Shown here: piece by piece, positions 8,086 through 57,727 of the stretch
Layout: every line of letters starts with the position of its first letter
Position numbering within the stretch: position 1 is the first letter of the stretch
Virus record (IMG/VR): IMGVR_UViG_3300034760_000013
Coordinates: 1-63,820 of that record
From: a virus
DNA: 63,820 nucleotides
Strand: one strand, 5' to 3'
Made by a program: the position numbers and the translations under genes
Notes under the pieces: generated by a model
The model's database searches: none
Told to the model about the DNA's origin: nothing
Seen by the model: the letters and a program-made list of their open reading frames with translations, nothing else

Positions 8086-11000
8086 ATGGATGACATCCGA
8101 GCCCGCCTAGACGCGCTAAGGGCGGGAAATCCGCTCGCGTCCAAATATATCCCCGTGGATGAGCCGGTCGACTTCTCGTCGGAGCTCGTCCCGCCGAAGG
8201 CTTATCCGCAAGCCGAGAAGGGCGACTTTATCGACGAGCCCGTCGACTTCTCGTCTGAGCTGGTCGCGCCAACGTCTTCCGGATCTTCCTTCAACCGGGC
8301 CGTTGGCGACTACACACGCGAGTTTGGCAAGGGCGCCGCTCATGGCGCGACCTCTGCCGTGGGCAGCGCGGTTCAGGGCATCGATAGCGTCGGCAGCAGG
8401 CCGTCCACAATGGAGGGGATCGCTGGCGCGGCGTCTCGCCTCTCGCCTTTCAATCTGATCGACAAGGCGCTGAAAGGCGTCGGCCTGATCGATGAGACGG
8501 GCGCTGATGCCATGCAGCGCATGCGCGATGAGGCTCGGCCAGAACCTCGCAGCGACGTAACCGCCGGGCCGTTCTACAAGGCCGGCCAGGACGTGAAGAG
8601 CTTTGCCGACGAGCAGTTTCCCGCCGCCCCAGGATGGGAAGACTCCCTCACGCGCAAGGTCAGTGGAGCGCTCGGTTCAACCGTTCCACTGGTCGGCGTC
8701 AGCATGCTTCCTGGTGGTGTCGGGCTTGGCATGACGGCAGGATCTCTGATGAGCTCTGCCGAGGCCGTGGATCGCGCCGTCGAAGCAGGAGCCACCAAGG
8801 AGCAGATCGCCGAGGCGGGCAGGCAAGGTCGACTGGTCGGCCTAACCGAGCAGTTTCCGATCGAGGTGATCCTTGAGCGTGTCCCGCTACCTGCTGCTGG
8901 CAAGGCTATCAGCGCCCTTGGCCGCGTTATCGCCAAGGCGCTGGCAGAGGGCGGGCAAGAAGGCGTCCAGCAAACCCTCCAGAATTTGATTGAGAAGGGC
9001 GTCTACAATCCCGCGCAAGACATCTGGGAGGGTACGGCTGAAAACGCTGTGCTCGGTACGGTTGTCGGTGGTGGCATGGGCGTGGTGGGCGAGGCCGCAA
9101 CCCCGCGGCCGGGCGAACCGGCTCAGCCAGGACAGCCAGCGCCCGCTCGAGCCGAGCCGACCTTTGGCCTGGATGGCGAGGTTCTGCCGCCCGAGCCTGC
9201 ACCGCCGGCCGGACCCGGCCTGGACGCGCCTGGTCCGACGATCATCGACGGTGAGGTGGTGCCGCCGTTGGTTGACAGATCAGTCGGAAGTTCGGGTTTG
9301 GTTGCGGAGACGCCTGCGCAACCCGCCAACGCACCTGTCGCGCAGGGACCGCTCGGATTGCCGGACCCGTCCCTCGATGGCGAGATTCTTCCGCCTGCGG
9401 CACGCCAGGCTCTAGCCGGCCTGCTGGATCGCCCGCAGATCGACGGAGAGGTGAACCAGCCGGCGCCCGCCGCGCCGGACGAGACTACAGCACTGCCCGC
9501 GCCGACTCTGTCCGACAATGCCCTGCAATTACCGGCAACAAGTCCGCAGGGGCTACCCGCGCCGCCGGCACAGATCGCGCAGCCTATCGCGAGTGACAAT
9601 CAAGAAACGTTGTCTATCGCGGGACCGGCTTCCGTTGAAGCCAACGCAGCACCCCTGGTCGACGAGCCCCTCGACCTAAGCGACGAGCTTATCGCGCCGG
9701 TAGGTCTCGGCACCCGCTCCAAGCCGCTTATGCTTTCCGGGCCCGCCGCGCTCGAAGCTGCAAACCAGCGTGCTGCGCAACCCACAGTCGGCCAGGCTAA
9801 GGCCAACAACTACAAGCAAGGCCATGTCCGCTTCCCGCGGAAGAGCCCCTATGCCGGCATGGTCGTGGCGATCGAGACCCCAAAGGGCGCCGTCCGTCGT
9901 GACAAGCAGAACGACACCCCGCAATGGGAGGTAACGCTTCCAGCAACGTATGGCCGGATTCAGAACACCGTCGGCGGCGATAAGCAGCCGGTCGACGTCT
10001 ACATCGGTGACAATCTCGATTCACCGTCTGCCTTTGTCATCGACCAGGTCGACCCTGACACGGGTCGCTGGGACGAGCATAAAGTTGTAGTCGGCGCCAA
10101 CAGCCGCCAGGAAGCCGAGGCTATCTATGACGGCGGCTTCCAGGACGGCTCCGGCCCGATGCGCCGCGCTGCTGTCTCCGAAATCCCCGCCGGAAATCTG
10201 AAGGCCTGGGCCACGTCGGGCAAAGCCCGCCGCCCGTTTGACCGCAACGCTGTCGCCGAGTTCCGGCGGAATCGGGAGGCCATGAAGCCGAAGATCGGGA
10301 TGGATCCCGAGCGGATGATGGCGAAGTTCCCCATCCTCAAATCCCTGGCCGCGGAGGGTGGCGTCGACCCGAGATCTCCGCTGGCCGGCGAGCTGCGCAA
10401 CATGGGCGTCACCGAGTCCTTCGTGAAGAAGAACAGCTCGTTGCGTGGCCTCTACCAGCCAGGCGGCCGCACGGCGGTAGACAACTTCCCGGCTTCAGAA
10501 TGGGGCGACTATTTCCCCGAGCTGCAGGGGCAAGAGGACGACCACAACGGCTACGTCCCGCCCGAGTCGATGCTGGGCGCGATCCGTGACGAGACCTTCG
10601 GCGCACCCCGCCGCACACCTGCCGAGCAGGAAAAGATTGACGCCTATCGCGAGGCGATGGACGATGCCCGCAGGAGACATACCGATGCCGAACTCCAAGA
10701 AGTCATCAACGACGCCCCCTGGGACATCGGCGACGAACTCCGAAGCGACGCCTGGACCGACAGTGACACAGAAAGCTACCTGGCTAGCCAGGAAGTTTCG
10801 GCAGATGGCGGCGACCGCTACACCGGACAGGAAGCCGGTTTTGATGGAGACCAGCCGGAAGTTCGCGAAGGTCGCGAAGATGAAATAGAGCCGGGGGCTT
10901 ACGAGCCCGACGAGGAGGAGACCAGATCCCCGCCGCCGACTTCCTCCTGGATGGAGGAGCGGGAAGCCAGGATTAAAGCCTCCAGGGCGGCTGGAAACCA

Positions 11001-14000
11001 GCACCTCGACCAAGCGCAAGCCGCCGTCGAGACGATGCGTGGGCACGAGATATTCTCCGTCCATGATCCGAAAGAGCGCGGCAAAATCCGCACCGTCTCA
11101 AATGACGGCGACGTGGTCGTGCATTGGGCCGACAGCTACTCGGCACAGAAGAACCTGGCTCAAGAGAAGACTGAGAAGCGGGGCAGGCAGACTGTAACCG
11201 TCCACGAGTCCTGGCTGATGCCCAGTGACCTCAAGGATTACGTTTTTGCCCGTGGCTCGGTGGAGGTAGAGGCCGGTGCCGACGGCAAGGCCCAGACCGT
11301 CATCCCCGGCGCGGAGAAGATCGGCGACGGCAAACTCGCACAAATGAAGGCCGACACGCCGCTGCGTCCGCAGGCCGATCAGAAGCCCATGGACGCCGGC
11401 CTGTTCGGCGATAGCGCCGCGCAGACCGACCTCATGGACCTGGTTCGCAAGCCGGAGGCTGGACCGCCAGTCGAAATAATCGAAACGGCCGAGCAGGTTG
11501 TCGAAGAGCCTCGCGTTGAGGCTACCCGCAAGCCCGAGCGACTCGAGGATGCTGGCGCTAAGATCGGTGGCGCGCGGAAGGACCGCTGGCGCGAGCGCGG
11601 CCTGACTCTGGACGACCTCGACGGCATGACCGCCGTGCATGGCACGGCCGGCGGCGTGTTCACCAAGGAGACCGGCTACAAAGGCGATCCCTACCCGAAC
11701 GCCGAGGAGCGCGCCGCGATCAACGCCGCGTTTGACGAGCTGGTCGACGCGATGAAGGTCGACGAGAGCGTCGATCCCCCGGTTGTTTATTCGGCCCGCC
11801 GCGGCGCAGCGCCATCTCGCGCCAAGCTGGAAACCGAGATCGAGGCTATCGTCCGGCAAGTCGCCCCAGACTCGGTTGCGCTGGAGCTCCACGACAGCAT
11901 GACCGTGGACGGCAGCAACCCAGGCCTGAAAGCCTGGAACCTGCGCGGCCCACAGAAGATCGCCGGCTCCTACAGCTACATCCATGACCTGATCCGCGTC
12001 GCCATGGACATGGACCCGGTCAACACGGCTTTCCATGAGTCCTGGCACTCGATCGAGCGCCTGATGACAAAGGCCGAGCGGGCGCTGTTCGCGCGGGAAA
12101 TGCCGCGGCTGCGCTCAATCGCTGACCGTGATCTCGCCGACGGCGCGGCCGACATCAGCAAGGGCGAGGTGCTGGCCGTTGCTTTCGCAGCCTATTCCGA
12201 GGCGCGCTACAAGGGCATGCACGTTGGCGTGCGCCGGTTTTTCGACAAGCTGGCACGCATCATCCGCAAGGTCCGCAATCTGCTGCAGGGCTACAGCTTC
12301 AACACGGCCGAAGACGTCTTCGACGCCGCCTATGCTGGCGAGATTAAGGGCAGGGCAGGGGAGAGCGCGGCAAAGAGTGAAGCGCTATCCGCACGCCGCC
12401 GTCCGACCGCCGCGCAACAGCAGGCATCAGGCGCTGCGTTCGTCGCGCCCGAGCCGTCCAAGGCTCGCGACTTCCGGTTCAAGTGGCAGGACCGCTTCAT
12501 CGACATGCGCGAATACCAGCGCGCGATCGAAAAACAGATCGGTGCCGCACTGGCGCCCGACCAGGATGTCTATCGCTTCGAGGAGCTCTACCCTGGCAAG
12601 ACCGGCGCGCGCCTCAACAAGGTGCGCAGGGACCACGTCCAGCCGATCATCAAATACATGAAGCAGCACAAGATCTCCTACAAGGAGATCGGCGAGTTCC
12701 TCATGGCGCGGCACGCCCTCGAGCGGAACGCGCACCTGCGCAAGATGGGTTCCACCAAGGCGGACCCGTCGGGCATGTCAGACGCGGACGCCATGGCGAT
12801 CGTGCGCAAGCACCGTGCGGCTAACCGCCTGGCCAACTTCAATTCACTCGGCAAGCGCGTCGACAAGCTGATCGCTGAGACCCGTGACGGTCTGCTGCGC
12901 GATGGCCTCATCACGCCCGAGCAGCACAAGGACTGGGGGAGCACCTACAACTACTACGTCCCGCTGCGTGGCTTTGAGACCGACCCCGAGCACGACGAGG
13001 GCAACCCGATGGGCACGGGTAAGGGCTTCGACATTGGTGGACCGGAAGCCAAGGCGGCAATGGGCCGGGGCAGCAAATCCGACAACCCGCTGCTCTATGT
13101 CATCCTGCAGGCAGAGACCGGCGCCATTCGTGGCGAGAAGAACCGCGTGCTGCGCGCCCTGGTGCGCCTGGTCAAAGCGAACCCCAACAAGGACGTCTGG
13201 GAGATCGACCAGCATGAAATCCGCTCGCGCCGCAACCCGACCACTGGGCTGATCGAGACCTACCATGTCGGCCCGCAGGCGCTGAACGACGCAAACACGT
13301 TCCGCGTGAAGATCGGCGGCAAGACGCAGTTCATTACGCTCAAGGACGACCGCCTGGCGCGCGACATGAAGCAGCTCGGCGCCGAAGGGCTGACCGGCGT
13401 TCTCAATTTCAGCGCCGGGATCAATCGCTTCCTATCCAAGGCCAACACGTCCTGGAACCCCGCGTTCTCGATCCCAAACTTCTTCCGCGATCTGCAGGCC
13501 GGCATGCTGCACATGAGCGAGTTCAAGGTGCGCGGCCTGCGCACCAAGGTGCTGCGGGATCTTCCGGCGGCAACGCGCGGCATGTGGCGCTACACTCGCG
13601 ACAAGGACACCTCGACTGGCTGGGCCAAGTACGCCCAGGAGTTCGCCGACGCGGGCGGCAAGATCGAGTTTTACAACATGGACAACGTCCGCGATCAGCA
13701 GAAGAAGCTGGAGCGGAAATTGAAAGGCAGCGCCAGGGACAAGGCTCTCGCCGTGGTCGAGGCCTTTGAGGACGCCAACGGCGCGGTCGAGAATGCCATC
13801 CGCCTCGCGCTGTTCGTCAACTTGCGCCGGGCCGGCAAGAGCAAGGCCGATGCGGCCAGCGCAGCGCGCAATCTAACCGTCAACTTCAACCGCCGTGGCG
13901 CCAACGCGCCGACCGTGAACGCTCTCTACATGTTCTTCAACGCCGCGGTGCAGGGCAGCGTCCGCCTGGGCCAAGCTATCAAGCGGTCGCCCGTGAAGAT

Positions 14001-15063
14001 GGGTGCTGCGCTCGGCGCCATGGTCGCGCTTGGGGCAGTCGAGGACATGCTCAACTACGCTCTCGCCGGCGAAGACGACGACGACATGAACCGCTGGGAC
14101 AAGGTGCCGACCTGGGAGAAGGAGCGCAACCTGATCCTCATGTGGCCAGGCTCCGACGTCGGCTACAAGATCCCGCTGAGCTACGGCTACAATGTCGCTG
14201 TTGTGCTCGGCATGGAGCTTTCGGCGGTTGCCCGGCATTCGCTCGGCATGGGCCAGGGGTCCAGCGTGGCGGAAGCCACGGCAAAGATGATGAGCTCCTT
14301 CATGGGCTCGTTTATGCCGATCGACGATGGCGGCTCTGCCCTCCAGTGGGCGGCGCCGACGGTGGCCGATCCATTCCTTCAGATCGCCGAGAACACCGAC
14401 TGGGCCGGCAAGCCGGTTCACCGTCAGAGCTTCGACGAGAAAGATCCGAAGGCCTACCTCTACAATCGCGGCGCCTCGCCCTGGATGAAGGCCGCGGCCG
14501 AGGCCGCAAACAAGGCCACCGGCGGCAACGAGTTCAGGAAGGGCGCGATCGACGTTTCGCCTGACGACCTCGACCACCTCGCAGCATTCTTCACGGGCGG
14601 CGCAGGCGATTTCTGGATCAACAAGGTGATTGGCAGCGGCTGGAAGCTCGCCACTGGCGAGGAGATCCAGAGCTATCAGGTGCCGCTGGTCTCGAAGGTG
14701 CGCACGGAGGTCAGCTCGATGACCGACTCTGGCGTCTACTACGACCTGCGCGACGAGGTGCAGACGGTCGAGCAGGAGATCAAGGGTTTCCGCAAGATTG
14801 GTGAGCCTGAGAAGGCTAAAGCTGCAGCGGAGGCGCGGCCGGTCGAGACGAAAGCGATCAAGGCGTTCAGCGGCGCCGAGAAGCAGCTCGCGAAGCTGCG
14901 CAAGGTGGTCAAGGCGATCGACGCCGACAAAGACCTAACCAGCGCGCAGAAGCAGGCCAAGATCAAGGTGGTGCGCGAGCGCCAGGACGCCATCATGCGC
15001 CAGGCCCGAAAGGTCTGGGAGCAGGCGAGGGAAGGGGAGGTCGCTACTGCGCCGGCTCTTTGA
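8086..15063 (+). CDS. Giant (2325 aa) multidomain virion/ejection protein: pyrophosphatase-like segment, HExxH zincin motif, PLxRFG-type region, hydrophobic C-terminal part
   Basis: Single uninterrupted ORF. IETPKGAVRRDK...YGRIQNTVGGDKQPVDVYIGD resembles family-I inorganic pyrophosphatase. FHESWH at 12034-12048. YYVPLRGFE at 12961-12975. Repeated short motifs DEP(V/L)D(F/L)S.EL(V/I) occur 3 times and (I/L)DGE(V/I).(P/Q)P 4 times. Confidence 0.75.
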   Translation: MDDIRARLDALRAGNPLASKYIPVDEPVDFSSELVPPKAYPQAEKGDFIDEPVDFSSELVAPTSSGSSFNRAVGDYTREFGKGAAHGATSAVGSAVQGIDSVGSRPSTMEGIAGAASRLSPFNLIDKALKGVGLIDETGADAMQRMRDEARPEPRSDVTAGPFYKAGQDVKSFADEQFPAAPGWEDSLTRKVSGALGSTVPLVGVSMLPGGVGLGMTAGSLMSSAEAVDRAVEAGATKEQIAEAGRQGRLVGLTEQFPIEVILERVPLPAAGKAISALGRVIAKALAEGGQEGVQQTLQNLIEKGVYNPAQDIWEGTAENAVLGTVVGGGMGVVGEAATPRPGEPAQPGQPAPARAEPTFGLDGEVLPPEPAPPAGPGLDAPGPTIIDGEVVPPLVDRSVGSSGLVAETPAQPANAPVAQGPLGLPDPSLDGEILPPAARQALAGLLDRPQIDGEVNQPAPAAPDETTALPAPTLSDNALQLPATSPQGLPAPPAQIAQPIASDNQETLSIAGPASVEANAAPLVDEPLDLSDELIAPVGLGTRSKPLMLSGPAALEAANQRAAQPTVGQAKANNYKQGHVRFPRKSPYAGMVVAIETPKGAVRRDKQNDTPQWEVTLPATYGRIQNTVGGDKQPVDVYIGDNLDSPSAFVIDQVDPDTGRWDEHKVVVGANSRQEAEAIYDGGFQDGSGPMRRAAVSEIPAGNLKAWATSGKARRPFDRNAVAEFRRNREAMKPKIGMDPERMMAKFPILKSLAAEGGVDPRSPLAGELRNMGVTESFVKKNSSLRGLYQPGGRTAVDNFPASEWGDYFPELQGQEDDHNGYVPPESMLGAIRDETFGAPRRTPAEQEKIDAYREAMDDARRRHTDAELQEVINDAPWDIGDELRSDAWTDSDTESYLASQEVSADGGDRYTGQEAGFDGDQPEVREGREDEIEPGAYEPDEEETRSPPPTSSWMEEREARIKASRAAGNQHLDQAQAAVETMRGHEIFSVHDPKERGKIRTVSNDGDVVVHWADSYSAQKNLAQEKTEKRGRQTVTVHESWLMPSDLKDYVFARGSVEVEAGADGKAQTVIPGAEKIGDGKLAQMKADTPLRPQADQKPMDAGLFGDSAAQTDLMDLVRKPEAGPPVEIIETAEQVVEEPRVEATRKPERLEDAGAKIGGARKDRWRERGLTLDDLDGMTAVHGTAGGVFTKETGYKGDPYPNAEERAAINAAFDELVDAMKVDESVDPPVVYSARRGAAPSRAKLETEIEAIVRQVAPDSVALELHDSMTVDGSNPGLKAWNLRGPQKIAGSYSYIHDLIRVAMDMDPVNTAFHESWHSIERLMTKAERALFAREMPRLRSIADRDLADGAADISKGEVLAVAFAAYSEARYKGMHVGVRRFFDKLARIIRKVRNLLQGYSFNTAEDVFDAAYAGEIKGRAGESAAKSEALSARRRPTAAQQQASGAAFVAPEPSKARDFRFKWQDRFIDMREYQRAIEKQIGAALAPDQDVYRFEELYPGKTGARLNKVRRDHVQPIIKYMKQHKISYKEIGEFLMARHALERNAHLRKMGSTKADPSGMSDADAMAIVRKHRAANRLANFNSLGKRVDKLIAETRDGLLRDGLITPEQHKDWGSTYNYYVPLRGFETDPEHDEGNPMGTGKGFDIGGPEAKAAMGRGSKSDNPLLYVILQAETGAIRGEKNRVLRALVRLVKANPNKDVWEIDQHEIRSRRNPTTGLIETYHVGPQALNDANTFRVKIGGKTQFITLKDDRLARDMKQLGAEGLTGVLNFSAGINRFLSKANTSWNPAFSIPNFFRDLQAGMLHMSEFKVRGLRTKVLRDLPAATRGMWRYTRDKDTSTGWAKYAQEFADAGGKIEFYNMDNVRDQQKKLERKLKGSARDKALAVVEAFEDANGAVENAIRLALFVNLRRAGKSKADAASAARNLTVNFNRRGANAPTVNALYMFFNAAVQGSVRLGQAIKRSPVKMGAALGAMVALGAVEDMLNYALAGEDDDDMNRWDKVPTWEKERNLILMWPGSDVGYKIPLSYGYNVAVVLGMELSAVARHSLGMGQGSSVAEATAKMMSSFMGSFMPIDDGGSALQWAAPTVADPFLQIAENTDWAGKPVHRQSFDEKDPKAYLYNRGASPWMKAAAEAANKATGGNEFRKGAIDVSPDDLDHLAAFFTGGAGDFWINKVIGSGWKLATGEEIQSYQVPLVSKVRTEVSSMTDSGVYYDLRDEVQTVEQEIKGFRKIGEPEKAKAAAEARPVETKAIKAFSGAEKQLAKLRKVVKAIDADKDLTSAQKQAKIKVVRERQDAIMRQARKVWEQAREGEVATAPAL

Positions 15064-15569: not shown

Positions 15570-18500
15570 ATGGGTATCAACTCATATCGCACGACGAGTC
15601 CCGAGGGACGCGACGCGATCAAGAATTACGAGAGCTTTAGGACCAACGCCTACCAGGACGGTGGTGGCGTCTGGACGATCGGCTTTGGGACAACCCGCTA
15701 TGCTGACGGGACCAAGGTAAAGCCTGGCGACAAGATCACTCCCGAGGAGGCCGAAGCTGCGTTCGCTGCGGATCTGGCCGCCCACGAGCAGCAGATCAAA
15801 GACATCAACATGAACCTGACGCAGCCGCAGTTCGATGCGCTCGCGTCCCTTACCTACAATCTCGGCCCTGCTGCCTTCGATAAATACCCGAGCCTGGGCG
15901 AGGCCATCGCCAACAATGACAAGGAAGCGCTGCTCGCAGCCTTCGATAAGTTTACCTACGACAACGGACAGCAAGTCAAAGGCCTGGCAAACCGGCGCAA
16001 CGCCGAACAGGCCATGTTTACCAGCCCGCTGGACATAGCCCAGTCGCCAGAGGCGCGCCCATCGCTGGCGCAGCCGCAGATGGACCTGGTTGCGGGAGAG
16101 GCGGGGCCACAGGTCACCGCGCTGCAGCAGAAGCTCAACGAGCTCGGCTATTCGGTCACGGTTGACGGCGTCTACGGCGAGGAAACCAAGAAGGCCGTCG
16201 AGACGGTTCAGGCCCAGCTCGGGCTGTCGCCCACGGGCGGTGCCATTGCCGACGTCGCCACGCTGAACGCGATCGACACTCAGGGGCCAGTCGCTCCGAT
16301 GGTTGCGCCTGAAGAAGCGCTCGTCGCCGTGAATGCGCCCGATCCCCTAGCCGTCGGCATTGCCGCACCGGCGCCGAATGCACCGTTTGGCTTCGAGCAG
16401 CAGATGGCCGAGCTCGGCCTGCCAGCAGGCGCGCCAGTCCCCGCCATGGAGACGCTGACCGCCTACACCGGCGCTCCAGACCCAGCCACCCTGGGCCCGG
16501 CGCCGGACACATCCCTGCCAGCGCCCGTCGCTGACTTTGCCGACGCCATCAGGACGCGCGTGCCGGAAATGACGATGGGCACTCCCGTGCCCGCGCCATC
16601 ACCACTGTCACCAGTGTCATCAGTGCAGGCGACACCTGTCGGGCCGGCCCCATCGGCCGCTGTCGTTGCCGCTACTGCAGCGGCACCTGTCGACGCACCA
16701 GCTCCGCTCAGCGGCCTCGATCCGGCCGCCTCGATCATGGGCTCTCCGGCGCCTGCCGCCATGGCCGGCACGGAGGTGCCCTCCCTGGACCCTACGGCAG
16801 GGGCCCCGGCCCCGACCCCATCCTCGTCAGTGCTCTCGTCATTTGCGCCCTCTGTCGCATCCCCCAACCGGGGCCCCCTTGGAGCTTTGTCGCAGCCGGA
16901 CTCCCTCGACGCGCAACCAGCTCCGGGGGCCCCGGCCCCTGCTCCAACAGCCGAAACACTGGGCGCGTTCAATTCGCGCATGGATTCGCGCGTGGAGAAG
17001 CTGGGCCTAGCCGGTGACCAGCTCCGTGCCGAGCACGAAAAGATGTTCTCGCAGCCGGCGCCCACGACAACGCCTGGCGCGCCGGCGCCGTCGGCCGCGG
17101 TCACCAACTCATTCAACTCCCAGACCTCGCCTGCAGCGGGCGCGCTCGGGGCTATGGATCCCGTGTCGGACATCACTGCGATGACCGACCCGAACATGGG
17201 CACGATGCCGGCAGCTCCGGCGACGGCCGCTCCGGCCCCATCCGCAGCCGTTATGAGCAGCGGCACATCGACCGCCTGGGGCGGCCAGGAAGCGCCTGCC
17301 GAGGGCCCGTCAACCGGCGGTATGCCGACCGGCGATCAAGCCGCCAGCCTCGCCGAGTTCACCGAGCAGATGGACGCCAACATGGCGGGCCTCCAGGACA
17401 AAGTCGACGACGTCAAAGTCGATCAGTTCGGCCTGTTTGGCGGCGTATCCCAGCCTGGCGCGCCGGTCACAGGGCCGATCGACACTCCTGCGCCTGTGGC
17501 CGCCGAAGGCCCAGGGATGCAGCTCACGGCCATCGATGCGCCCGACCCTGTCGATGCGCCCGCACCGTCTAACCCAGTCGACGCTCCTGCCGGCATCATG
17601 GGCGCCGCCGCGCCGGCCCCATCCTCACCAGTCGGCCCGGCCGCCAGCTTGGTTGGCACAGAGGTTTCAGCACCGGAAGCTCCAACCCCGACCGCTCCGG
17701 CACCATCAGCGGAGGTCATCGGCGACAATCCTGGCTACACGCCAGGGCCGTCTCCAGACTTCTCCGCGCCGAGCTCGCCCTCGCCGGATCCTGGTGTTGT
17801 GGACGACGTCGTCGCCGACACACCGCTTGCCGCCGACATGGCCGGACCAGCAGTGCCAGGCCTGGATACGGCTGCGGCCGCTGCGGCGACCTCACTCGCC
17901 GGCATGCCGTCGGCAGCTCCGACGCCGTCGGCCGCCGTGCTCAGCACTCCGACGGAGAGCATCTCCGCGACGCCTGCTTCGCCAGATTTCGGGCCCGAGG
18001 CTCCGGCCCCCGGCTCCTTCACGGTCGACACAGGCTTGGCGCCGAAGGGCGATCTTCCTGCCGGCCTCCTGGCCGATGCTCCAGCACCGGCGCCAGCCCC
18101 TGCCCAAGTCGAGGCTCCAGCCCTGGCAGCAACACCCGGTCCCGCATCCCTGCCTGGTGCGCCAGCCGCGGCAACGCCAGACGAACGTTTGAGCCGCATG
18201 CCGACCGCACCTGCAGCCGAGGTCGAGCTCGTCGATGACGACGCACCGACGCCGCAAGTTGCTCCGGCTCCGGCTGCTCCGGCCCCCACCGAGGTCGGCC
18301 CGATCACTATGGACACAGCGCCAGCGGTAACCGGCCCAGGAGCCCCACCAGCGCCCGCCGTGACCAAGGTGGCACCTGAGACGCCCGCAGCCCCCAATCC
18401 CGCTCCTGAGCCAAGCGTGGCCCCGGCAGCACCGGCTCCGGCAGTCCCCGACGAAACCGTCGCACCGGCGCCGTCTCCAGACGTTGTCAAAGGACCACTC

Positions 18501-19004
18501 CCGTCGGGTATCAAGGAAGTGCTCGGCCCTGCACCTGCAGGCGGCAAGATCGGCCTGGGGGCGCCGATCGGTACACAGGACGCAATGCGCGGCATTGCCG
18601 GCTTTGCTGCTGGCGGCCCGCTTGGCGCGCTCATCTCAGCTCTCGGCCCTCGCGTCGTGGGAAGCCTGATTAACGCATTCCAGGGTGGTCCCGCAGCGGC
18701 CGGCCCAGCCCCGTCACCTGAAGCCGTCGCCGCAGCTTTGGCCGCGGCCGGAATGTCGGCCACGCAGGCCGGACCAAGCAGCGCCATCGGCGGTGGCTGG
18801 CGCGTGACCAACAGCGATGGCGTCAGCGCCGGCTACGGCACCGGCGGCTATGGCGCCGGCGGCGAACACGGAGGCCTGGGGGGCCTTTCGGGGCCGAATG
18901 CCGGCTCGGGAATGGGCGGAACCGCCACCGGAATGGGAGCCACGACCGATACTGGCGGGCACCGCGGCAGCTCGGGAATGGGCGCCATTGGATCCATGGA
19001 TTGA
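15570..19004 (+). CDS. Virion-associated lysozyme (GH24) plus peptidoglycan-binding domain, with about 850 aa of Pro/Ala-rich low complexity and a Gly-rich tail
   Basis: N-terminus YESFRTNAYQDGGGVWTIGFGTT is T4/lambda-type lysozyme. LQQKLNELGYSVTVDGVYGEETKKAVETVQ is PG_binding_1-like. The rest is A/P-rich. Confidence 0.8.
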   Translation: MGINSYRTTSPEGRDAIKNYESFRTNAYQDGGGVWTIGFGTTRYADGTKVKPGDKITPEEAEAAFAADLAAHEQQIKDINMNLTQPQFDALASLTYNLGPAAFDKYPSLGEAIANNDKEALLAAFDKFTYDNGQQVKGLANRRNAEQAMFTSPLDIAQSPEARPSLAQPQMDLVAGEAGPQVTALQQKLNELGYSVTVDGVYGEETKKAVETVQAQLGLSPTGGAIADVATLNAIDTQGPVAPMVAPEEALVAVNAPDPLAVGIAAPAPNAPFGFEQQMAELGLPAGAPVPAMETLTAYTGAPDPATLGPAPDTSLPAPVADFADAIRTRVPEMTMGTPVPAPSPLSPVSSVQATPVGPAPSAAVVAATAAAPVDAPAPLSGLDPAASIMGSPAPAAMAGTEVPSLDPTAGAPAPTPSSSVLSSFAPSVASPNRGPLGALSQPDSLDAQPAPGAPAPAPTAETLGAFNSRMDSRVEKLGLAGDQLRAEHEKMFSQPAPTTTPGAPAPSAAVTNSFNSQTSPAAGALGAMDPVSDITAMTDPNMGTMPAAPATAAPAPSAAVMSSGTSTAWGGQEAPAEGPSTGGMPTGDQAASLAEFTEQMDANMAGLQDKVDDVKVDQFGLFGGVSQPGAPVTGPIDTPAPVAAEGPGMQLTAIDAPDPVDAPAPSNPVDAPAGIMGAAAPAPSSPVGPAASLVGTEVSAPEAPTPTAPAPSAEVIGDNPGYTPGPSPDFSAPSSPSPDPGVVDDVVADTPLAADMAGPAVPGLDTAAAAAATSLAGMPSAAPTPSAAVLSTPTESISATPASPDFGPEAPAPGSFTVDTGLAPKGDLPAGLLADAPAPAPAPAQVEAPALAATPGPASLPGAPAAATPDERLSRMPTAPAAEVELVDDDAPTPQVAPAPAAPAPTEVGPITMDTAPAVTGPGAPPAPAVTKVAPETPAAPNPAPEPSVAPAAPAPAVPDETVAPAPSPDVVKGPLPSGIKEVLGPAPAGGKIGLGAPIGTQDAMRGIAGFAAGGPLGALISALGPRVVGSLINAFQGGPAAAGPAPSPEAVAAALAAAGMSATQAGPSSAIGGGWRVTNSDGVSAGYGTGGYGAGGEHGGLGGLSGPNAGSGMGGTATGMGATTDTGGHRGSSGMGAIGSMD

Positions 19005-28588: not shown

Positions 28589-28848
28589 GCATCCCTGGGT
28601 ATGACGCCTGGAAGCTGGCCACACCGCCCGAATACGAGTGGCCTGACGACCTCTGCGAGGACTGCGGCGGCGCTGGCATCCTAGAGCAGGAATGCACCTG
28701 CGAGGCCAACCCGGAAACCTGCCTGTCGTGCCTGGGCGAGGATCCTCCCTGCCGCTCCTGCGGCGGCAGTGGTGGCCGGCGGTATGAGGAAGACGGCGAT
28801 GAAATGTACGACCGCAGGCGCGACCGTGCTGTGGACGACCTGCCATGA
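28585..28848 (+). CDS. Cys-rich DnaJ-type zinc-finger protein
   Basis: Contains CEDCGGAG and CRSCGGSG (two CxxCxGxG motifs). Confidence 0.6.
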   Translation: MSIPGYDAWKLATPPEYEWPDDLCEDCGGAGILEQECTCEANPETCLSCLGEDPPCRSCGGSGGRRYEEDGDEMYDRRRDRAVDDLP

Positions 28849-29135
28849 GAGCGCCGGCCCTGTTTCCCCTTTCAGAACTGCGCCTACTCACCCGCGAGGA
28901 GGCGGCCGGCTATCTCAATATCAGCACCACCACGTTCGATGAGAGAGTCAAGGATGGTCGCCTGCCAGGTCCGTTGCTGGAGGACGAGACGCGCAGCGGG
29001 AAGGGCAAACACGGCCGTCGAAAAGGGTACCTGGGGCCGCTTCTCTGGGACAGATGGCTGATCGATCAGAAGATTAGTGACGTATCGCTGCGTCGGCGCA
29101 GCGAAGTGGCTGACGAAATGGCCGATGTCGCGTGA
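28845..29135 (+). CDS. xis: Excisionase / MerR-AlpA-like HTH protein
   Basis: LLTREEAAGYLNISTTTFDERVKDGRLPGP. Immediately upstream of and overlapping the integrase gene. Confidence 0.65.
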   Translation: MRAPALFPLSELRLLTREEAAGYLNISTTTFDERVKDGRLPGPLLEDETRSGKGKHGRRKGYLGPLLWDRWLIDQKISDVSLRRRSEVADEMADVA

Positions 29136-30205
29136 TCGCGCTCAGCCTGAAGCACCTGATTTCCGACAAGGATCGGAAGGGCAACGTGCGCTTCTACGTC
29201 CGCGTCGCGGGCGCAAAGAAGAAGCGCATCCGCGGCGAGCCAGGCAGTCAGGAGTTTATCCAGGACTATACGCGGGCCGTTGCGAGTGCCTTGACCGAGG
29301 CCGGGCGACGCAGCCGGCGCGAGGAAAGCGGCACGGTTGGCTGGCTGGTCGAGCGCTATCTCAAGAGCGGCGATTTTGCCGACCTGGACAAGGGCACGCA
29401 GGACCGGAGGCGACGCATGCTGACTGAGTTCAGCGAAGCCTATGGCGATCGCCGGGCCGAGCGCCCCCGCAAGTTCGTGGTCACGGCCATGGACAAGTGG
29501 AAGGCAGCGCATGGTCCGCACGGCGCCAACAACCGGCTGAAGGCCCTCCGCGGCATGTATGGCTGGGCTGTGCATCAGGAGCTGGTGGATCGAGACTCAA
29601 CGCGCGAGGTCAAGCCGTTCTCGCCGCCGAGTGAGGGCTGGCACACCTGGACGACGGCCGAGATCCGCAAGTTCATGGCCCACTGGCCGCTCGGCTCGGC
29701 GCCGCGCGTCGCCATGACGGTCATGCTCTGCACGGGCACACGCATCTCCGACGCCTACCGGATCGGGCCGCAGCACCTGCGCCAGCAGCACAAGGAGCAG
29801 CGCATCGTGTTCCGGCCAGGCAAGACCGAGGACACCAGCGGCATCGAGGTCAGCATCCCGGTGCTGCCCATGCTCGCAGAGGCGCTCGCAGCCGGGCCGA
29901 CCAGCGACCAGGCCTTTGTGGTGGCCAAGCGCGGCAAGGCATTCAGCTCACCGGAGGCGCTGGGCAATTCATTCAAGCGCTGGTGTGTGGAGGCGGGGCT
30001 ATCGCATTGCTCGGCGCATGGTCTGCGCAAGGGCGGGGCGACGCTCCTGGCCGAGTCTGGCGTGACCAGCTCGCAGCTCATGGCGATCTACGGCTGGACG
30101 AAAATGGAGATGGCCGAGCGCTACACCAGGAAGGCGGATCGTTCCCGATTAGGGAGCGCTCTCAGCGGTGGATTCGGGCTGGAAGAGGAGAGAGGCGATG
30201 AATGA
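29132..30205 (+). CDS. int: Tyrosine integrase
   Basis: TGTRISDAYR..., HGLRKGGATLL (HxxR) and YGWTKMEMAERYTRKADR (catalytic Tyr context). Arm-binding-like N-terminus. Confidence 0.9.
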   Translation: MIALSLKHLISDKDRKGNVRFYVRVAGAKKKRIRGEPGSQEFIQDYTRAVASALTEAGRRSRREESGTVGWLVERYLKSGDFADLDKGTQDRRRRMLTEFSEAYGDRRAERPRKFVVTAMDKWKAAHGPHGANNRLKALRGMYGWAVHQELVDRDSTREVKPFSPPSEGWHTWTTAEIRKFMAHWPLGSAPRVAMTVMLCTGTRISDAYRIGPQHLRQQHKEQRIVFRPGKTEDTSGIEVSIPVLPMLAEALAAGPTSDQAFVVAKRGKAFSSPEALGNSFKRWCVEAGLSHCSAHGLRKGGATLLAESGVTSSQLMAIYGWTKMEMAERYTRKADRSRLGSALSGGFGLEEERGDE

Positions 30206-30614
30206 TGAAGGAATGGAAGAGCGCCGCAGGATCAGAGAAGCCGCCGACAGAGCCGAAAGGAAATCAGCCGTGAAACCTAAGAAGATCATCGAGAGCAATG
30301 TCACCGAAATCTGGGCCGTGGACGAACTGCGAAACTACAGATCACCCAAGATAATGACGCATTACAGGGAGGCGCTAGAACCCGAGGCCCTCTACGCAAT
30401 GGCACTGATCGAGAAATGGGGCTTGGTGATGGGCGCGCCGGCAGGCGAGGACAGCGCAGGCCGCGCTATGGTCGGCCTTATGCCGGTCGAGGATATAGTT
30501 CAGCGCGGGTTTGATGTCGCGCGCCTTGCCTATTCCGAAGCTGGCAAGCGCGGGCTGGTGTTAACGCTCCCGTCCTACGCTGATCTGGCTGAAGCAGGCG
30601 ACGCCGATGGGTAA
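30198..30614 (+). CDS. Hypothetical protein
   Basis: GAGGAGAGAGG RBS upstream of the ATG at 30198. 138 aa. Confidence 0.55.
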   Translation: MNDEGMEERRRIREAADRAERKSAVKPKKIIESNVTEIWAVDELRNYRSPKIMTHYREALEPEALYAMALIEKWGLVMGAPAGEDSAGRAMVGLMPVEDIVQRGFDVARLAYSEAGKRGLVLTLPSYADLAEAGDADG

Positions 30615-31116
30615 CTTTCGGTTTCTACGCCGTGATGTCGACCGTCGTGGGAACCCGCGCTTCTATGTGCGTCGCGCCGGATGGCTCCAGGCACGACTGC
30701 GCCAGCCTTTCGGCACGGAGGAGTTTCGTGCCGAATATGAGGCCGCAGTAGCCGGCCTGATTCCAAAGCCGGAAAGGCCCGGCGACGCCAAATGCTGCGT
30801 GTATGTCGTTGCGGCGGATGAGCAGCCGATCAAGGTCGGCATAGCCATCGATCCGGCCGAACGCCTGAAGCGGCTGCGTAGCGGCAACCCTGCCAGGCTA
30901 CACCTCAAGGCCGTGCTGGAGACCACAAAGGACCGGGCCGTCAGGATCGAGCGGACCCTCAAAGCGTGGATGCGTGACTACCGTCTTTTCGGGGAGTGGT
31001 TTGACGTTCCGAGCGACGAAGCAATAGCCCTTTTGGACCGTGCAGCAGAGCGTTTTGGAGGACGAAAAGTCCCACTCGGTAGTCCCACTTTCAGAGGGGG
31101 CGAAATAGCCCAATGA
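30607..31116 (+). CDS. Integrase-N-terminus-like domain fused to a T5orf172/MUG113 (GIY-YIG-like) domain
   Basis: The N-terminus DRRGNPRFYVRRAG...FGTEEFRAEYEAAVAG parallels the integrase DRKGNVRFYVRVAG...PGSQEFIQDYTRAVAS. The C-terminal VYVVAADEQPIKVGIA..RLKRLRSGNP...GEWF is T5orf172-like. Confidence 0.7.
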   Translation: MGNFRFLRRDVDRRGNPRFYVRRAGWLQARLRQPFGTEEFRAEYEAAVAGLIPKPERPGDAKCCVYVVAADEQPIKVGIAIDPAERLKRLRSGNPARLHLKAVLETTKDRAVRIERTLKAWMRDYRLFGEWFDVPSDEAIALLDRAAERFGGRKVPLGSPTFRGGEIAQ

Positions 31117-31260
31117 AAGCAGCTACTTACAGATTTGATGGTGCCCCTGGCCGGGGCACGACCAATGGGTATTTATACAACAGTAACAGACATTTAGCGG
31201 AAGGGCAACCCAGTCCCACTTTCCGCCATATCCCGCCATATGCCGGGGAAGTGTCCCACT
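31069..31260. other. Candidate attP: four direct GTCCCACT(T) repeats flanking an inverted-repeat core, plus 2 x CCGCCATAT
   Basis: GTCCCACT at 31069, 31082, 31213 and 31253. GTGCCCC-TGGCC-GGGGCAC at 31141-31159. CCGCCATAT at 31223 and 31233. Relatively AT-rich and non-coding, downstream of int. Confidence 0.5.
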
Positions 31261-31279
31261 CCACTTTTGAGGTGGCGTG

Positions 31280-31675
31280 ATGCCGGGGCCGAAAAACTGG
31301 GACGGATTGACCGTCAACGGTCCCAATTTGGAGACGCTCTGTAAGAGGCGCCCGCAGCGGCTTTGGCCGAAGGTTGGGGGCGTTTATTTCGCCGAAACGG
31401 AAGGGCTGGTGAAGATCGGCCTGTCAGCACACATCGCGTTTCGGCTTGAAGATCTCCGCTGCGCCTGCCCATTCGAGATCACTCTCCTGCATTTCGAAAG
31501 GGGCTACGAGCGCAGGGACGAGCGTCGCCTTCATCGGCAGTTCGATGAGTATCGCGTTCGAGGTGAGTGGTTCCGCTGCGAGGGCGAGCTCCTGTCGTTC
31601 CTGGTCGACAGGGGGGCCTACCTGCCGCCCAGGTTTTGGCCGACTAAGAGGCAGCGACTGGCGGTGGTCTTATGA
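31280..31675 (+). CDS. T5orf172/MUG113 (GIY-YIG-like) domain protein, paralogue of 30607..31116
   Basis: GGVYFAETEGLVKIGLS...RLEDLR...HRQFDEYRVRGEWF. GAGGTGG RBS before the ATG at 31280. Confidence 0.65.
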   Translation: MPGPKNWDGLTVNGPNLETLCKRRPQRLWPKVGGVYFAETEGLVKIGLSAHIAFRLEDLRCACPFEITLLHFERGYERRDERRLHRQFDEYRVRGEWFRCEGELLSFLVDRGAYLPPRFWPTKRQRLAVVL

Positions 31676-31855
31676 CGCCCGCTTCCTACGCCCGACCTGC
31701 TTACAGGCCAGCTCCAGAAGCTTCGGATAGGGCATGCGCCGTCCCAGTTCCCAGCCCTGCAGAGTCCGCACGGAAACGCCCAACGCGGCAGCGGCCTGAG
31801 ACTGGCTCAGGCCGTGCTCGCTTCGCCATGCGGCGAGGTGTTCGGAGGGGGTCAT
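31670..31855 (-). CDS. Small XRE-type HTH protein (antitoxin-like)
   Basis: MTPSEHLAAWRSEHGLSQSQAAAALGVSVRTLQGWELGRR. ATGA overlap with the upstream gene. Confidence 0.6.
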   Translation of the reverse strand: MTPSEHLAAWRSEHGLSQSQAAAALGVSVRTLQGWELGRRMPYPKLLELACKQVGRRKRAS

Positions 31856-32088
31856 CAGTCGTTGAAACCATGTGGGAAGACTGTCTGCGGATGGTCGGCA
31901 CACCGGGTGCAAGGCTCGGTGTGGAGGAGGGTGGACTTCTTCACGCGCCGCTCGAGACCGCGACGGGCCACAAAGTAGGTCTTCTCGGTCTCGCGGAGAA
32001 AGATGCCCACGGAAAGGCAAGGGCCAGCCGGGGAGAACTCGCGGACATTGTGCAAAACCAGGCTGCTTGGGATGACGGCCTTTTTCAT
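31855..32088 (-). CDS. Hypothetical 77-aa protein
   Basis: ORF with a Lys-rich start MKKAVIPSS. Middle gene of a 3-gene leftward unit. Confidence 0.5.
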   Translation of the reverse strand: MKKAVIPSSLVLHNVREFSPAGPCLSVGIFLRETEKTYFVARRGLERRVKKSTLLHTEPCTRCADHPQTVFPHGFND

Positions 32089-32100
32089 CTGCGTTCTCCC

Positions 32101-32364
32101 TTAGATCGTGGCGCGGAACCAGCGCGTGCCGTCACCGGAGCTGTCCCGGCGATGCTCCGCGACCTTGCGGCCGCGCCGGTCCTCGATGACGCACCAGTCG
32201 GCCGTGGTGCCGTAAGACTCAGCAAATTTCCGGCACTCGCGGATGGTGGAGAACTCGGCGATGGGGCCACCTGCCCAGGAGGAGCCCCCGACCTCCGCGG
32301 TGTAGGGGCCGCGGCCGCGCTGCGGAACGTGGTGGGTGCCCCTCAATGCTTGCTCATAGGCCAT
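32101..32364 (-). CDS. Hypothetical 87-aa protein
   Basis: Start at MAYEQ with AGGGAGA RBS. First gene after the divergent promoter/operator. Confidence 0.5.
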   Translation of the reverse strand: MAYEQALRGTHHVPQRGRGPYTAEVGGSSWAGGPIAEFSTIRECRKFAESYGTTADWCVIEDRRGRKVAEHRRDSSGDGTRWFRATI

Positions 32365-32394
32365 CTGTGTTCTCCCTTGCTGACAACCGGATAT

Positions 32395-32413
32395 TATACG
32401 CAATCAGCGTATA
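32395..32413. promoter_or_regulatory. Operator-like perfect inverted repeat TATACGC-N5-GCGTATA between divergent genes
   Basis: Read directly. On the minus strand it lies between TTGACT and TAATAT (spacing 16). Confidence 0.6.
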
Positions 32414-32450
32414 GTCAAGCGGGCAATCCAACCGATCACGGAGTTGTGAA

Positions 32451-32657
32451 ATGAAGCTCGGACCCGTCCTGGCGAGCTACCGCCACGCCAACAAAATCAC
32501 CCTCCGCGATCTGTCAGAAGAGATCGGCGTGCCGGTAGCGAGCCTGACTCGCATCGAGCATGGGTACGGCTGCACCAGCGAAAACCTGGGCGTCGTGCTT
32601 GCCTGGCTCCTCACGGAGACCCCGGTTAAGCCCAACTGGGGGATGCCGTCGCGATGA
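32451..32657 (+). CDS. XRE-family HTH regulator
   Basis: ITLRDLSEEIGVPVASLTRIEHG. Confidence 0.7.
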   Translation: MKLGPVLASYRHANKITLRDLSEEIGVPVASLTRIEHGYGCTSENLGVVLAWLLTETPVKPNWGMPSR

Positions 32658-56473: not shown

Positions 56474-57727
56474 ATGCTTGGCTTCTGGCCATTAGGCGGT
56501 GCCCCACTAGCCGGAACGCGACCTGCGGCAGGCGGTGTCGAGGCAATAACCGGAGCCTCCACGCTCACATTCGCGGCTTCCGGCACGCTCGGCGGTCAGG
56601 GAGAGCTGACGGCCACGGCCGCGGTCACGTTCTCGGTCAACGGCACGCTTGTCGGCACGGCCGCCCTCTCCGGGTCATCGTCGCTAACCTTCGCTCCAAG
56701 CGGCACACTGACTGGGGGCGGGTCGCTCACCGGAACGTCGTCGCTCACCTTTGCCACGTCAGGCACACTGACCGGCGGCGCAGCCGTCAGCGGCTCGTCG
56801 CCGTTTGCCTTTACCGCAACTGGTTCCCTCACAGGCGTCGGTGCCCTATCCGGAACCAGCAGCCTAGCATTCAGCCCCACAGGATCACTCCAGGGGGCTG
56901 GCGCACTTTCCGGCTCGTCCAGTCTGGACTTCACCACCACGGGCGCCCTGGGTGGTTCTGGTGCGCTTTCCGGGGCATCCAGCCTTAGCTTCAGCCCGAC
57001 GGGCGCGCTGACGGGCTCCGGCGCGTTGGCTGGCACCTCGTCCCTGACCTTCGCCACGACCGGCACGCTTTCCGAAGCGCTGGTGGAGGGCGAGCTGTCC
57101 GGCAGCTCATCGCTGTCGCTCGCTCCGGCGGGCACCTTGTCTGGCGTCGGTGCCCTGACCGGCACCTCGTCCCTCACCTTCGCAGCGGAGGGCACGCTTT
57201 CCGAAGCTCCAGCTTCGCCGCCGCTAACGGGCACGTCCAGCCTGACCTTTACGGTCACCGGCACACTCGACCAGCCTGCGGCAGCAGTCGCTGCTGGCGG
57301 TGGTGGCGCAGCCAAGAAGAAGGCCACCAGGAAGAAGCCGGAGGCGATCCGCAGCTTTGCCGAGCTCGAGCAGCTCCGCGAGAAGACCACGGAGAAGCGC
57401 CGCGAGGTCGTCGATCGCGTGCTAGGCCGCGAAAGCGTAACAAGCGAAACAAGCGCAACATCGGCCCAAAACGCGCCAAAACAGGCCGAGAATCACGAAA
57501 TACTGGCACGCGGCGAAACTGTCCCAGGTGCCCCACCTGTCCCAGCTTCTGCAGCCACATCGAATCTGGTAGACATTCGCCAGGTGCTCGCTGCAAACGC
57601 GGCTGAGCTATCCGCACTCGCGGAGCCCATCCCATCCACATCGTCTGTCCCGTCCGAAGTGCGGCCTGATCCCCAGGCCGACTACGACGAGGAAGCGGCT
57701 ATCATGGCGCTCTTGCTGGCGGCTTGA
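56474..57727 (+). CDS. Structural protein with 12 tandem 20-residue repeats
   Basis: Repeat unit (S/T)G(T/S)SSLTFA.SGTLTG.GAL occurs 12 times. Basic/charged C-terminal region. Confidence 0.65.
   Translation: MLGFWPLGGAPLAGTRPAAGGVEAITGASTLTFAASGTLGGQGELTATAAVTFSVNGTLVGTAALSGSSSLTFAPSGTLTGGGSLTGTSSLTFATSGTLTGGAAVSGSSPFAFTATGSLTGVGALSGTSSLAFSPTGSLQGAGALSGSSSLDFTTTGALGGSGALSGASSLSFSPTGALTGSGALAGTSSLTFATTGTLSEALVEGELSGSSSLSLAPAGTLSGVGALTGTSSLTFAAEGTLSEAPASPPLTGTSSLTFTVTGTLDQPAAAVAAGGGGAAKKKATRKKPEAIRSFAELEQLREKTTEKRREVVDRVLGRESVTSETSATSAQNAPKQAENHEILARGETVPGAPPVPASAATSNLVDIRQVLAANAAELSALAEPIPSTSSVPSEVRPDPQADYDEEAAIMALLLAA
56549..57268 (+). repeat. 12 x about 60-nt (20-aa) tandem repeat inside CDS 56474..57727
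   Basis: Parsed from the translation. Two units carry 3-aa insertions. Confidence 0.85.

Follow-up and report, generated by a model that had tools for sequence, protein, structure and literature searches.

What is the function of a small gene with an integrase-like N-terminus that separates the integrase gene of a temperate phage from its attachment site? The 63,820-nt virus sequence IMGVR_UViG_3300034760_000013 from IMG/VR (the window, i.e. the whole stretch analyzed here) raises this question, as its tyrosine integrase gene (int) is followed by such an open reading frame (ORF), ORF-A, the 3' end of which runs into what is very probably the phage attachment site (attP). ORF-A is a member of an apparently undescribed family of mobile nuclease-like genes carrying an integrase site-recognition domain. 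On balance, we lean towards reading it as a mobile homing-endonuclease-like cassette that would dock on the arm-type sites of attP, by analogy with the ICP1 nuclease Odn. The integration module comprises the following features:

28845..29135 (+): excisionase (Xis) or recombination directionality factor (RDF) candidate, helix-turn-helix (HTH) protein of HTH_17/AlpA-like type (weak HTH_17 match; PHROG excisionase/regulator families)
29132..30205 (+): tyrosine integrase, Int (PF00589, 2.9e-18 over aa 186-336; phrog_1 integrase)
30168..30614 (+): ORF148, between int and ORF-A and overlapping both; this phage only
30607..31116 (+): ORF-A; aa 1-58, Int-type N-terminal domain (N-domain); aa 62-150, T5orf172/MUG113 GIY-YIG-like domain; tail from the P arm of attP
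31068..31092 (+): P arm of attP, direct sites AGTCCCACTC (31068-31077) and AGTCCCACTTTC (31081-31092), within the 3' end of ORF-A
31135..31165: attP core, an imperfect inverted repeat; predicted crossover region
31212..31262 (+): P' arm, arm-type sites AGTCCCACTTTC (31212-31223) and TGTCCCACTCC (31252-31262)
31223-31231 and 31233-31241: CCGCCATAT repeats, 10 bp apart, between the two P'-arm sites
31277..31675 (+): ORF-B, 132 aa, MUG113/T5orf172 domain only; starts just past the P' arm
31294..31329: degenerate arm-like sites in the 5' end of ORF-B, GTCCCAGT (- strand, 31296-31303) and GTCCCAATTT (+ strand, 31320-31329)

Two-domain architecture of ORF-A

A preliminary description of this locus had proposed that the N-terminus of ORF-A is homologous to that of the integrase, and this proves correct. 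Residues 3-57 of ORF-A align without gaps to residues 5-59 of Int at 42% identity (E 8e-10), and the relationship holds at the level of the family profile described below. The second half of the protein (aa 64-145) matches the Pfam families MUG113 (1.2e-10, 42.2 bits for a cut-off of 22.3) and T5orf172 (4e-6, 27.7 bits for a cut-off of 20); both ORF-A and ORF-B thus score above the Pfam gathering thresholds. No HTH family of Pfam or NCBIfam matches ORF-A.

A word-indexed protein search with ORF-A returned ORF-A alone, which is a singleton at 90% identity, and the family emerged through an exhaustive HMMER search. This search yielded 3779 MUG113-type hits, and among the top 150, ~30 cluster representatives (150-240 aa) align over ORF-A residues ~3-150. 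No NCBIfam or PHROG functional name is attached to this family, and literature searches retrieved no integrase-N-domain::T5orf172 cassette at an int/attP junction. In a 32-member alignment, the members are 28-40% identical and display conserved N-terminal and nuclease-type blocks joined by a linker of very variable length. The consensus is KYL..D.DRHGN.R.YVR..G..K.RIR..PGT.EF...Y..A for the N-domain and VYV...VKIGI...P..RL..LQ.G.P...A...ER..H...R..GEWF for the nuclease-type domain. Nine positions are invariant (R13, F40, Y66, K76, G78, R86, E115, E130, and W131), three of which, Y66, R86, and E115, correspond to the Tyr, the Arg, and the catalytic Glu of GIY-YIG enzymes. A profile built from the 32 members retrieves two-domain proteins and, through the N-domain, PF00589 integrases of 340-420 aa (E ~1e-13).

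The AlphaFold2 (AF2) model obtained with the family alignment (pLDDT 92) consists of two domains. The N-domain comprises three strands and a helix, which is the fold class of integrase arm-binding domains and of AP2. The C-terminal domain follows a strand-strand-helix-strand-helix order and finds its best PDB matches in the GIY-YIG nuclease Slx1 (7cq3_A and 6sei_C, probability 0.98 and 0.97, with E values of only 0.04-0.05). We infer that the N-domain is arm-binding from where it sits in heterobivalent-type integrases, from its predicted topology, and from the arm repeats that accompany it. For this domain, a sequence-profile search of the PDB retrieved only complement C9, a spurious hit.

The conservation of this family also bears on the idea that ORF-A is a fortuitous fusion or a decaying remnant, its int-like 5' end being the product of a partial int duplication or the scar of a tandem integration, fused to a T5orf172 gene and without current function, while the repeats serve Int only. 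Such an origin would suit a protein that is a singleton at the 90% identity level and that lies next to an extra ORF, ORF148, suggestive of local rearrangement. However, ~30 divergent clusters share the two-domain architecture, each of the two domains has invariant residues, and the fold of the protein is predicted with confidence. In addition, the coding regions of the Int and ORF-A N-domains share merely 45% DNA identity, hence the 5' end of ORF-A is no recent duplication of that of int. A remnant is thus highly improbable, and largely refuted by family conservation.

Three short proteins, P0173 (87 aa), P0195 (93 aa), and P0199 (129 aa), match the integrase-type N-domain only and contain no domain known to Pfam. 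Either their gene calls are truncated, or the arm-binding domain may also exist as a protein of its own.

Attachment site and predicted tRNA target

The window begins and ends with a 127-nt direct repeat (positions 1-127 and 63694-63820 are 100% identical), and phage genes are found throughout, among them structural and packaging genes and a RecT-like gene. The window is therefore the entire genome of a temperate phage, closed into a circle of ~63.7 kb (about 63,693 bp). An integrated prophage with host flanks is ruled out by the terminal overlap and by the presence of phage genes everywhere. As the overlap implies circular closure, and thus a free phage genome, an intact attP must exist. A blastn search with 28800-32100 gave zero matches among GenBank phages. 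ORFs are packed upstream of xis, the stop codon of which overlaps the int start (relatives carry an HTH_17/AlpA gene at the equivalent place), and the sole sizeable non-coding stretch near int is 31117-31276. This 160-bp stretch is relatively AT-rich, as previously noted (GC content of 0.537 vs 0.64 for the whole window).

Around this stretch, GTCCCACT occurs on the + strand at 31069, 31082, 31213, and 31253, i.e. four exact copies within 192 bp, the first two of which lie in the 3' end of ORF-A as the preliminary description had reported. Elsewhere in the 63.8 kb there are two copies only, both strands considered, for 1.66 expected in the whole window. Two copies lie on each side of the core, from which they differ in sequence, and a 12-mer, AGTCCCACTTTC, is identical at 31081 and 31212. 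The segment 31068-31262 is very probably an attP of the lambda type, served by a heterobivalent tyrosine integrase of which the N-terminal ~55 aa form a putative arm-binding domain. The arrangement of arm, core, and accessory sites had already been taken for an attP, and this view is supported by the circular genome, by matching layouts in relatives, and by the nature of the core. The two CCGCCATAT repeats of the preliminary description, found at 31223 and 31233, belong to a motif present three times in the window for 0.35 expected. They are candidates for binding Xis or some other accessory protein; the other phages inspected showed no equivalent pair. A scan with the integration host factor (IHF) consensus gave nothing useful.

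The perfect inverted repeat GTGCCCC-TGGCC-GGGGCAC previously noticed at 31141-31159 is present and extends to 13-nt arms (31135-31147 and 31153-31165) that are 85% complementary, but its significance has to be refined, as most of it is the 3' end of a tRNA gene. The core sequence TGGTGCCCCTGGCCGG (31139-31154), which lies 47 nt past the P-arm sites, is the reverse complement of the last 16-17 nt (31139-31154/5, CCA included) of tRNA-Leu(CAA) genes, in antisense to int; TCAAATCTGTAAGTAGCTGC, adjoining the core, is the reverse complement of 31119-31138. We scanned metagenomes with the reverse complement of the core preceded by the T-loop consensus and obtained at least 120 contigs. ARAGORN called a tRNA-Leu(CAA) gene in 31 of the 36 loci scanned, and the match stops exactly at the CCA end. 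Identity to the window spans 16 nt in 113 tRNA-Leu matches and 17 nt in 10 others. The bacterial attachment site (attB) is thus predicted to be the 3' end of a tRNA-Leu(CAA) gene, which provides a target prediction for an uncultured 63.7-kb temperate phage. The inverted repeat would largely correspond to the tRNA acceptor end and a phage-side inverted copy, as expected of core-type sites flanking an overlap region. Since the core is antisense to int, integration would rebuild an intact tRNA at the ORF-A/int end of the prophage. It also follows from the position of attP that the two MUG113 genes, ORF-A and ORF-B, would lie at opposite prophage ends, as was anticipated.

Two other interpretations of this region were rejected. 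The hairpin at 31141-31159 is not a plausible terminator, as it has no T-run and was not called by a terminator scan. Similarly, a 55-aa ORF within attP (31113-31280) has no family match and overlaps arm and core sites.

Relatives of the phage provide us with comparable layouts. Among characterized integrases, the closest is encoded by Sinorhizobium phage phi2LM21 (35% identity), the record of which has a 17-bp attachment site annotated in tRNA-Phe, ~105 bp downstream of int. The core of the window matches this site in position and orientation. In both phages the order is xis, int, attP, and arm-type repeats flank a core identical to a tRNA 3' end. The phi2LM21 att region reads ...AAGTGTCCAGCTTTTTGAGGTG...GATGGTGCCCGGAGGCGG, and window positions 31248-31274 resemble the arm AAGTGTCCAGCTTTTTGAGGTG; moreover, the phi2LM21 arm motif GTGTCCAGC is similar to GTCCCAC of the window, and GTGTCCAGC-type repeats are also found at the opposite end of the phi2LM21 prophage. 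The two phages differ in their tRNA target (predicted tRNA-Leu(CAA) vs tRNA-Phe) and in the ~900 bp (ORF148 and ORF-A) that separate int from the P arm in the window, whereas the int 3' end overlaps the arm sites in relatives. In Agrobacterium phage Rivra, three GGCTAACC repeats at the int stop are followed by ATGGTGGGCCCGGAGGGC and then by more GGYTARCC copies. An integrated relative, L131, located in a 1.49-Mb bacterial contig, shows int with two GGTGGGACA in its 3' end (GGTGGGACA being the reverse complement of TGTCCCACC), then 44 nt and a tRNA-Met gene on the opposite strand; L132 is arranged likewise, but with tRNA-Glu. Paired arm sites 39-47 nt ahead of the tRNA end are found in L131, L132, L008, L006, and L172, and the arm motif TGTCCCAC is common to the window, L008, and L131, which are otherwise divergent phages. 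In L006, a tRNA-Pro(TGG) gene (L006:6998-7080) lies ~400 bp downstream of the attP core of that phage.

Distribution of the cassette and readings of its function

The order int, two-domain gene, arm sites is found in seven phage contexts (the window, L006, L008, L009, L134, L172, and L175). In five of them (L006/L007, L008, L009/L010, L134, and L172), the two-domain gene starts 4-29 nt ahead of the stop of a PF00589 integrase, and its 3' end enters arm-type repeats that precede a tRNA-end-like core. These are TGTCCCAC sites around ATGGTGCCCAGGGGCGGGGC in L008, three GTGTCGCAC sites around TGGCGACCCCGGCAGGGC in L006, CTGTCGCACCC sites around TGGCAGTCCCTAGGGG in L009, and GGTGTCTCAC sites in L172 and L134. 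The C-terminal tails of the two-domain proteins are attP read-through; in the window, the tail K-V-P-L-G-S-P-T-F comes from the two arm sites. The window departs from the shared layout only by ORF148, which has no Pfam, PHROG, or NCBIfam match and a GC content at third codon positions (GC3) of 0.66 vs 0.84 for int. As the ORF-A homologue of other phages overlaps the int stop directly, ORF148 looks like a second insertion. One exception is known: in L171, a 901-nt contig, the gene of the family member P0142 (L171:129-819) follows a tRNA-Pro(CGG) gene at ~40 nt, on the same strand and with no intervening int, which places it on the opposite side of an att site from usual.

Most integrases of this type are found without the two-domain gene. 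Among 37 IMG/VR loci with the N-domain motif DRHGNxRxYV, collected with a tighter 8-sequence alignment, 36 are integrases without it and one carries it; phi2LM21, Rivra, ctOK67, L131, L132, and L133 also lack it. The L009 Int lineage contains both states, as L175 (97% identical Int) has the cassette and L176-L179 (94-98%) do not. The difference is a clean 478-bp indel with near-identical flanks. Its left edge, ...GCTGTTTTTGG(C/T), falls at int codon ~343, and its right edge, (C/T)TGTCGCCCC, is the first arm site, P1. In the cassette-less alleles (L176-L179:3476-3640), Int reads through the P arm and the core and ends in ...PLAVPRGRDKA*. Since this ORF spans both, integration would alter the C-terminal tail of Int. 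In the cassette-bearing alleles (L009:5915-6560 and L175:3476-4118), Int gains 11 new codons and a stop, and its former tail passes in frame to the two-domain protein. The accessory gene is thus dispensable for the integrase family, and its presence or absence is polymorphic. Finally, the GC3 of the cassette is below that of the adjacent int in five of five phages (0.64 vs 0.84 in the window).

A fixed insertion beside P1, presence/absence polymorphism, and compositional deviation together fit a free-standing homing cassette, which is the function that we favor for ORF-A. According to this model, the N-domain of ORF-A would dock on GTCCCACT arm-type sites, and the tethered GIY-YIG-like domain would cleave some way off, within the 3' end of int, in related phages without the cassette. 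Repair off a cassette-bearing genome would then copy the gene into the int/P-arm junction. The insertion would replace the sequence upstream of P1 and part the binding site from the cleavage site, and the carrier would be protected; spacing rules of the I-TevI type are known to confer immunity and come up in the discussion of PMC8263062.

Experiments support T5orf172 proteins as nucleases and as products of homing endonuclease genes (HEGs); their DNA-binding domains are modular and swappable, and they lie at the boundaries of genetic exchange (PMC10448857). ORF-A shares many features with free-standing GIY-YIG/T5orf172 HEGs such as I-TevI, T4 Seg, and those of ICP1 (PMC10448857): a nuclease domain, a flexible or variable linker and a DNA-binding domain, sporadic occurrence among syntenic genomes, deviating composition, location at a module boundary, and discrete insertion adjoining the presumed recognition site. 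It differs from them in several respects. Its DNA-binding domain comes first, followed by the nuclease, and is of the integrase type instead of the Zn-finger, HTH, or CapR type; its recognition sites are functional recombination sites that must be kept; and it is fused in frame into a former integrase tail. HNH-AP2 homing endonucleases and IPA-HNH HEGs (Magnani et al. 2004, as cited in PMC10448857) similarly associate a homing-type nuclease with a small DNA-binding domain of three strands and a helix, but their nuclease is HNH instead of GIY-YIG-like, and neither sequence comparison nor Foldseek links the ORF-A N-domain to AP2 or lambda Int.

The closest design is that of Odn (Gp88), a T5orf172 nuclease of ICP1. 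Its N-domain shares 42% identity with the domain by which a satellite RepA binds the origin, and Odn cleaves that origin (PMC8263062). Odn retains the GIY-YIG Arg and Glu, and a mutant of the catalytic Glu, E180A, was used to test its nuclease activity (PMC8263062); analogues of Odn exist in E. coli phages (PMC10448857). Like ORF-A, Odn carries a C-terminal T5orf172 domain and an N-terminal DNA-binding domain copied from another site-specific protein, with 42% identity to the donor in both cases, and the predicted target is the set of repeated binding sites of the donor protein. However, the Odn domain is the RepA_N domain of an enemy's protein, whereas that of ORF-A is of the type found in its own adjacent integrase. 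In addition, the cognate sites of ORF-A lie in the carrier's attP, its position at the int/attP junction is fixed, and its presence and absence are homing-like. The domain of ORF-A thus does not come from an antagonist, as it does in Odn-type anti-element nucleases, although the design principle is shared.

This comparison leads to another reading, in which ORF-A would be an Odn-like weapon, an att-directed nuclease that would destroy competing integrative elements sharing its arm-type sites. Satellites and rival phages of the same integrase family would qualify, for instance those that use the same tRNA target or that hijack this Int. This reading has the nuclease step in common with homing. 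The combination of a captured specificity domain with T5orf172, as in Odn (PMC8263062), speaks for it, as do the occurrence of TGTCCCAC in divergent phages, which makes cross-targeting possible, and the clustering of other nuclease genes near int and attP in relatives. Yet the captured domain comes from the phage's own integrase family and its sites are in the phage's own attP, while Odn attacks nothing but foreign DNA; no element was identified as a candidate target of ORF-A; and the fixed insertion at P1 with indel polymorphism is more simply explained by homing. We therefore regard a weapon as unlikely. Its most developed form, which may be termed att-site warfare and which we find similarly doubtful, would be a nuclease coexpressed with Int that uses the integrase address code to cut DNA with the same arm-type sites. 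Its targets could be rival phages or satellites of the same integrase family, their attL/attR at shared tRNAs, or surplus attP copies, and the insertion of the cassette beside arm site P1 would provide self-protection. If true, the recombination module would have a built-in means of excluding superinfecting phages or competitors, or of controlling the outcome of integration, which would be new as a class.

Several observations weigh against the favored reading of attP and ORF-A. The N-domain has no Pfam Arm-DNA-bind match at E<=1, and folded alone, it gives no significant Foldseek match to lambda Int, Tn916 Int, or AP2. None of the 123 tRNA-Leu matches has GTCCCACT arms downstream, and a scan of genome contigs with Int found one 34% relative beside a tRNA-Val gene and no lysogen of the window phage, so that attB is predicted and not observed. 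Arm-site binding by ORF-A or Int, nuclease activity, and homing are what we infer by analogy and from the anatomy, and this holds for binding and cleavage in every member of the family. The main objection to any active nuclease is that four arm sites remain in the attP of the carrier itself, and in attL/attR once it is integrated; an extra, unproven cleavage-site or spacing requirement would thus be needed for it not to cut its own genome or the attL/attR of the lysogen. The presence/absence indel is equally compatible with loss. Finally, the two-domain gene is translationally coupled to int and inherits the C-terminal tail of Int in frame, which could mean a co-opted role in recombination.

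Such a role is central to a further reading, possible although rather unlikely in our view, in which ORF-A is a non-cutting arm-site binder that modulates recombination by competing with or joining Int at P/P'. It might act as an additional directionality factor, prevent reintegration, or repress transcription through attP, the GIY-YIG-like domain serving only as an oligomerization or DNA-contact module. Besides the N-domain held in common with Int and the cotranscription and translational coupling with int, it is supported by the tendency of N-domains to resemble their cognate Int most. Only 3 of 120 permutations attain an identity sum as high as observed, or 7 of 120 if BLOSUM scores are used, which hints weakly that cassette and cognate Int track the same arm sites. 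There are also precedents: regulators such as CapR arose by domestication of the DNA-binding parts of T5orf172 HEGs (10.1101/2020.11.28.402263), and I-TevI doubles as an autorepressor, according to a citation in PMC8263062. On the other hand, the catalytic Tyr, Arg, and Glu are invariant in 32 members that are only 28-40% identical, which is unexpected for a non-enzyme; most of the integrase family functions without the gene; the phage already carries an HTH_17 Xis candidate; and the compositional deviation and clean indel resemble a selfish cassette. Like known RDFs (Xis, AlpA, Cox), ORF-A is a small protein encoded beside int with presumed sites in the attP arms, but it lacks their winged-helix or HTH fold, contains a nuclease-type domain that is conserved, is dispensable in most of the integrase family, and coexists with a separate HTH_17 candidate upstream of int. 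Dispensability and polymorphism favor the site-specific nuclease and exclusion options raised in the preliminary description over the directionality factor that it also considered.

If the homing model is true, a selfish nuclease carries a copy of the domain with which a site-specific recombinase finds its DNA address, has settled at the integrase/attP junction, and has taken over the former C-terminal tail of Int. The principle of captured specificity exemplified by ICP1 Odn would then extend to integration modules, and the int-attP junction would be a homing hot spot at which integrase C-termini and attP arms are remodeled. The system is testable, as it offers a defined protein, 8-12-bp sites, and natural allele pairs with and without the cassette. 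It bears on how arm-type domains read DNA and on how nucleases shape the exchange of recombination modules among temperate phages.

ORF-B and other features of the phage genome

On the other side of attP, ORF-B matches MUG113 (1.4e-13, 51.6 bits) and T5orf172 (30.3 bits), and by sequence reading it keeps the Y, KIG, R, E, and GEWF motifs; no DNA-binding domain is recognizable in it. The preliminary description had presented ORF-A and ORF-B as flanking T5orf172 paralogues. The domain assignment stands for both, but they are not close paralogues, as they share 33% identity over 79 aa. A recent duplication is rejected on the same grounds, many unrelated MUG113 proteins being 40-50% identical to the ORF-A domain. 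Nor is the position of ORF-B beside attP a general arrangement: it is not conserved in other phages, L006, L008, L009, and L134 having no MUG113 gene at the equivalent place.

Other nuclease genes are found around the integration module of relatives. HNH genes lie upstream of xis in phi2LM21 (phi2LM21_p03), Rivra (RIVRA_39), and ctOK67 ('hnhc'), MUG113-only genes lie upstream of int in L179 (L179:1741-2280) and L187 (L187:877-1386, - strand), and a GIY-YIG gene lies beside int in cyanophage Pam5 (ON014757.1:24876-25130). Just past the P' arm of L008, an ORF (L008:6700-7107) appears HNH-like by eye (CxxC ... HLDH ... CxxCH), with no Pfam match at E<=0.01. MUG113-only, GIY-YIG, and HNH genes thus recur right before the xis-int pair of relatives, and the integration module seems particularly prone to hosting nuclease genes of the homing type.

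Directly after ORF-B, the window encodes an Xre-type HTH protein on the - strand (31670-32020), along with two small - strand ORFs. A sigma-70-like promoter lies at 32418-32391 (- strand), and a divergent + strand ORF (32451-32657) is HTH-like by eye, with no PHROG match. The region 31670-32657 is probably the immunity (cI/cro-like) switch. Elsewhere in the window, a 2325-aa ORF (8086-15063) has an internal segment of DarB-like/lysozyme-like type and ends in a C-terminal block that is large and conserved, and a 1144-aa ORF (15570-19004) has an endolysin-type domain at its N-terminus, which suggests internal virion or ejection proteins of the podovirus type. Finally, an 83-nt repeat occurs in four diverged copies (61-77% identity) at 56696-57207, within ORF 56474-57727, which indicates a repetitive structural protein, possibly a fibre.

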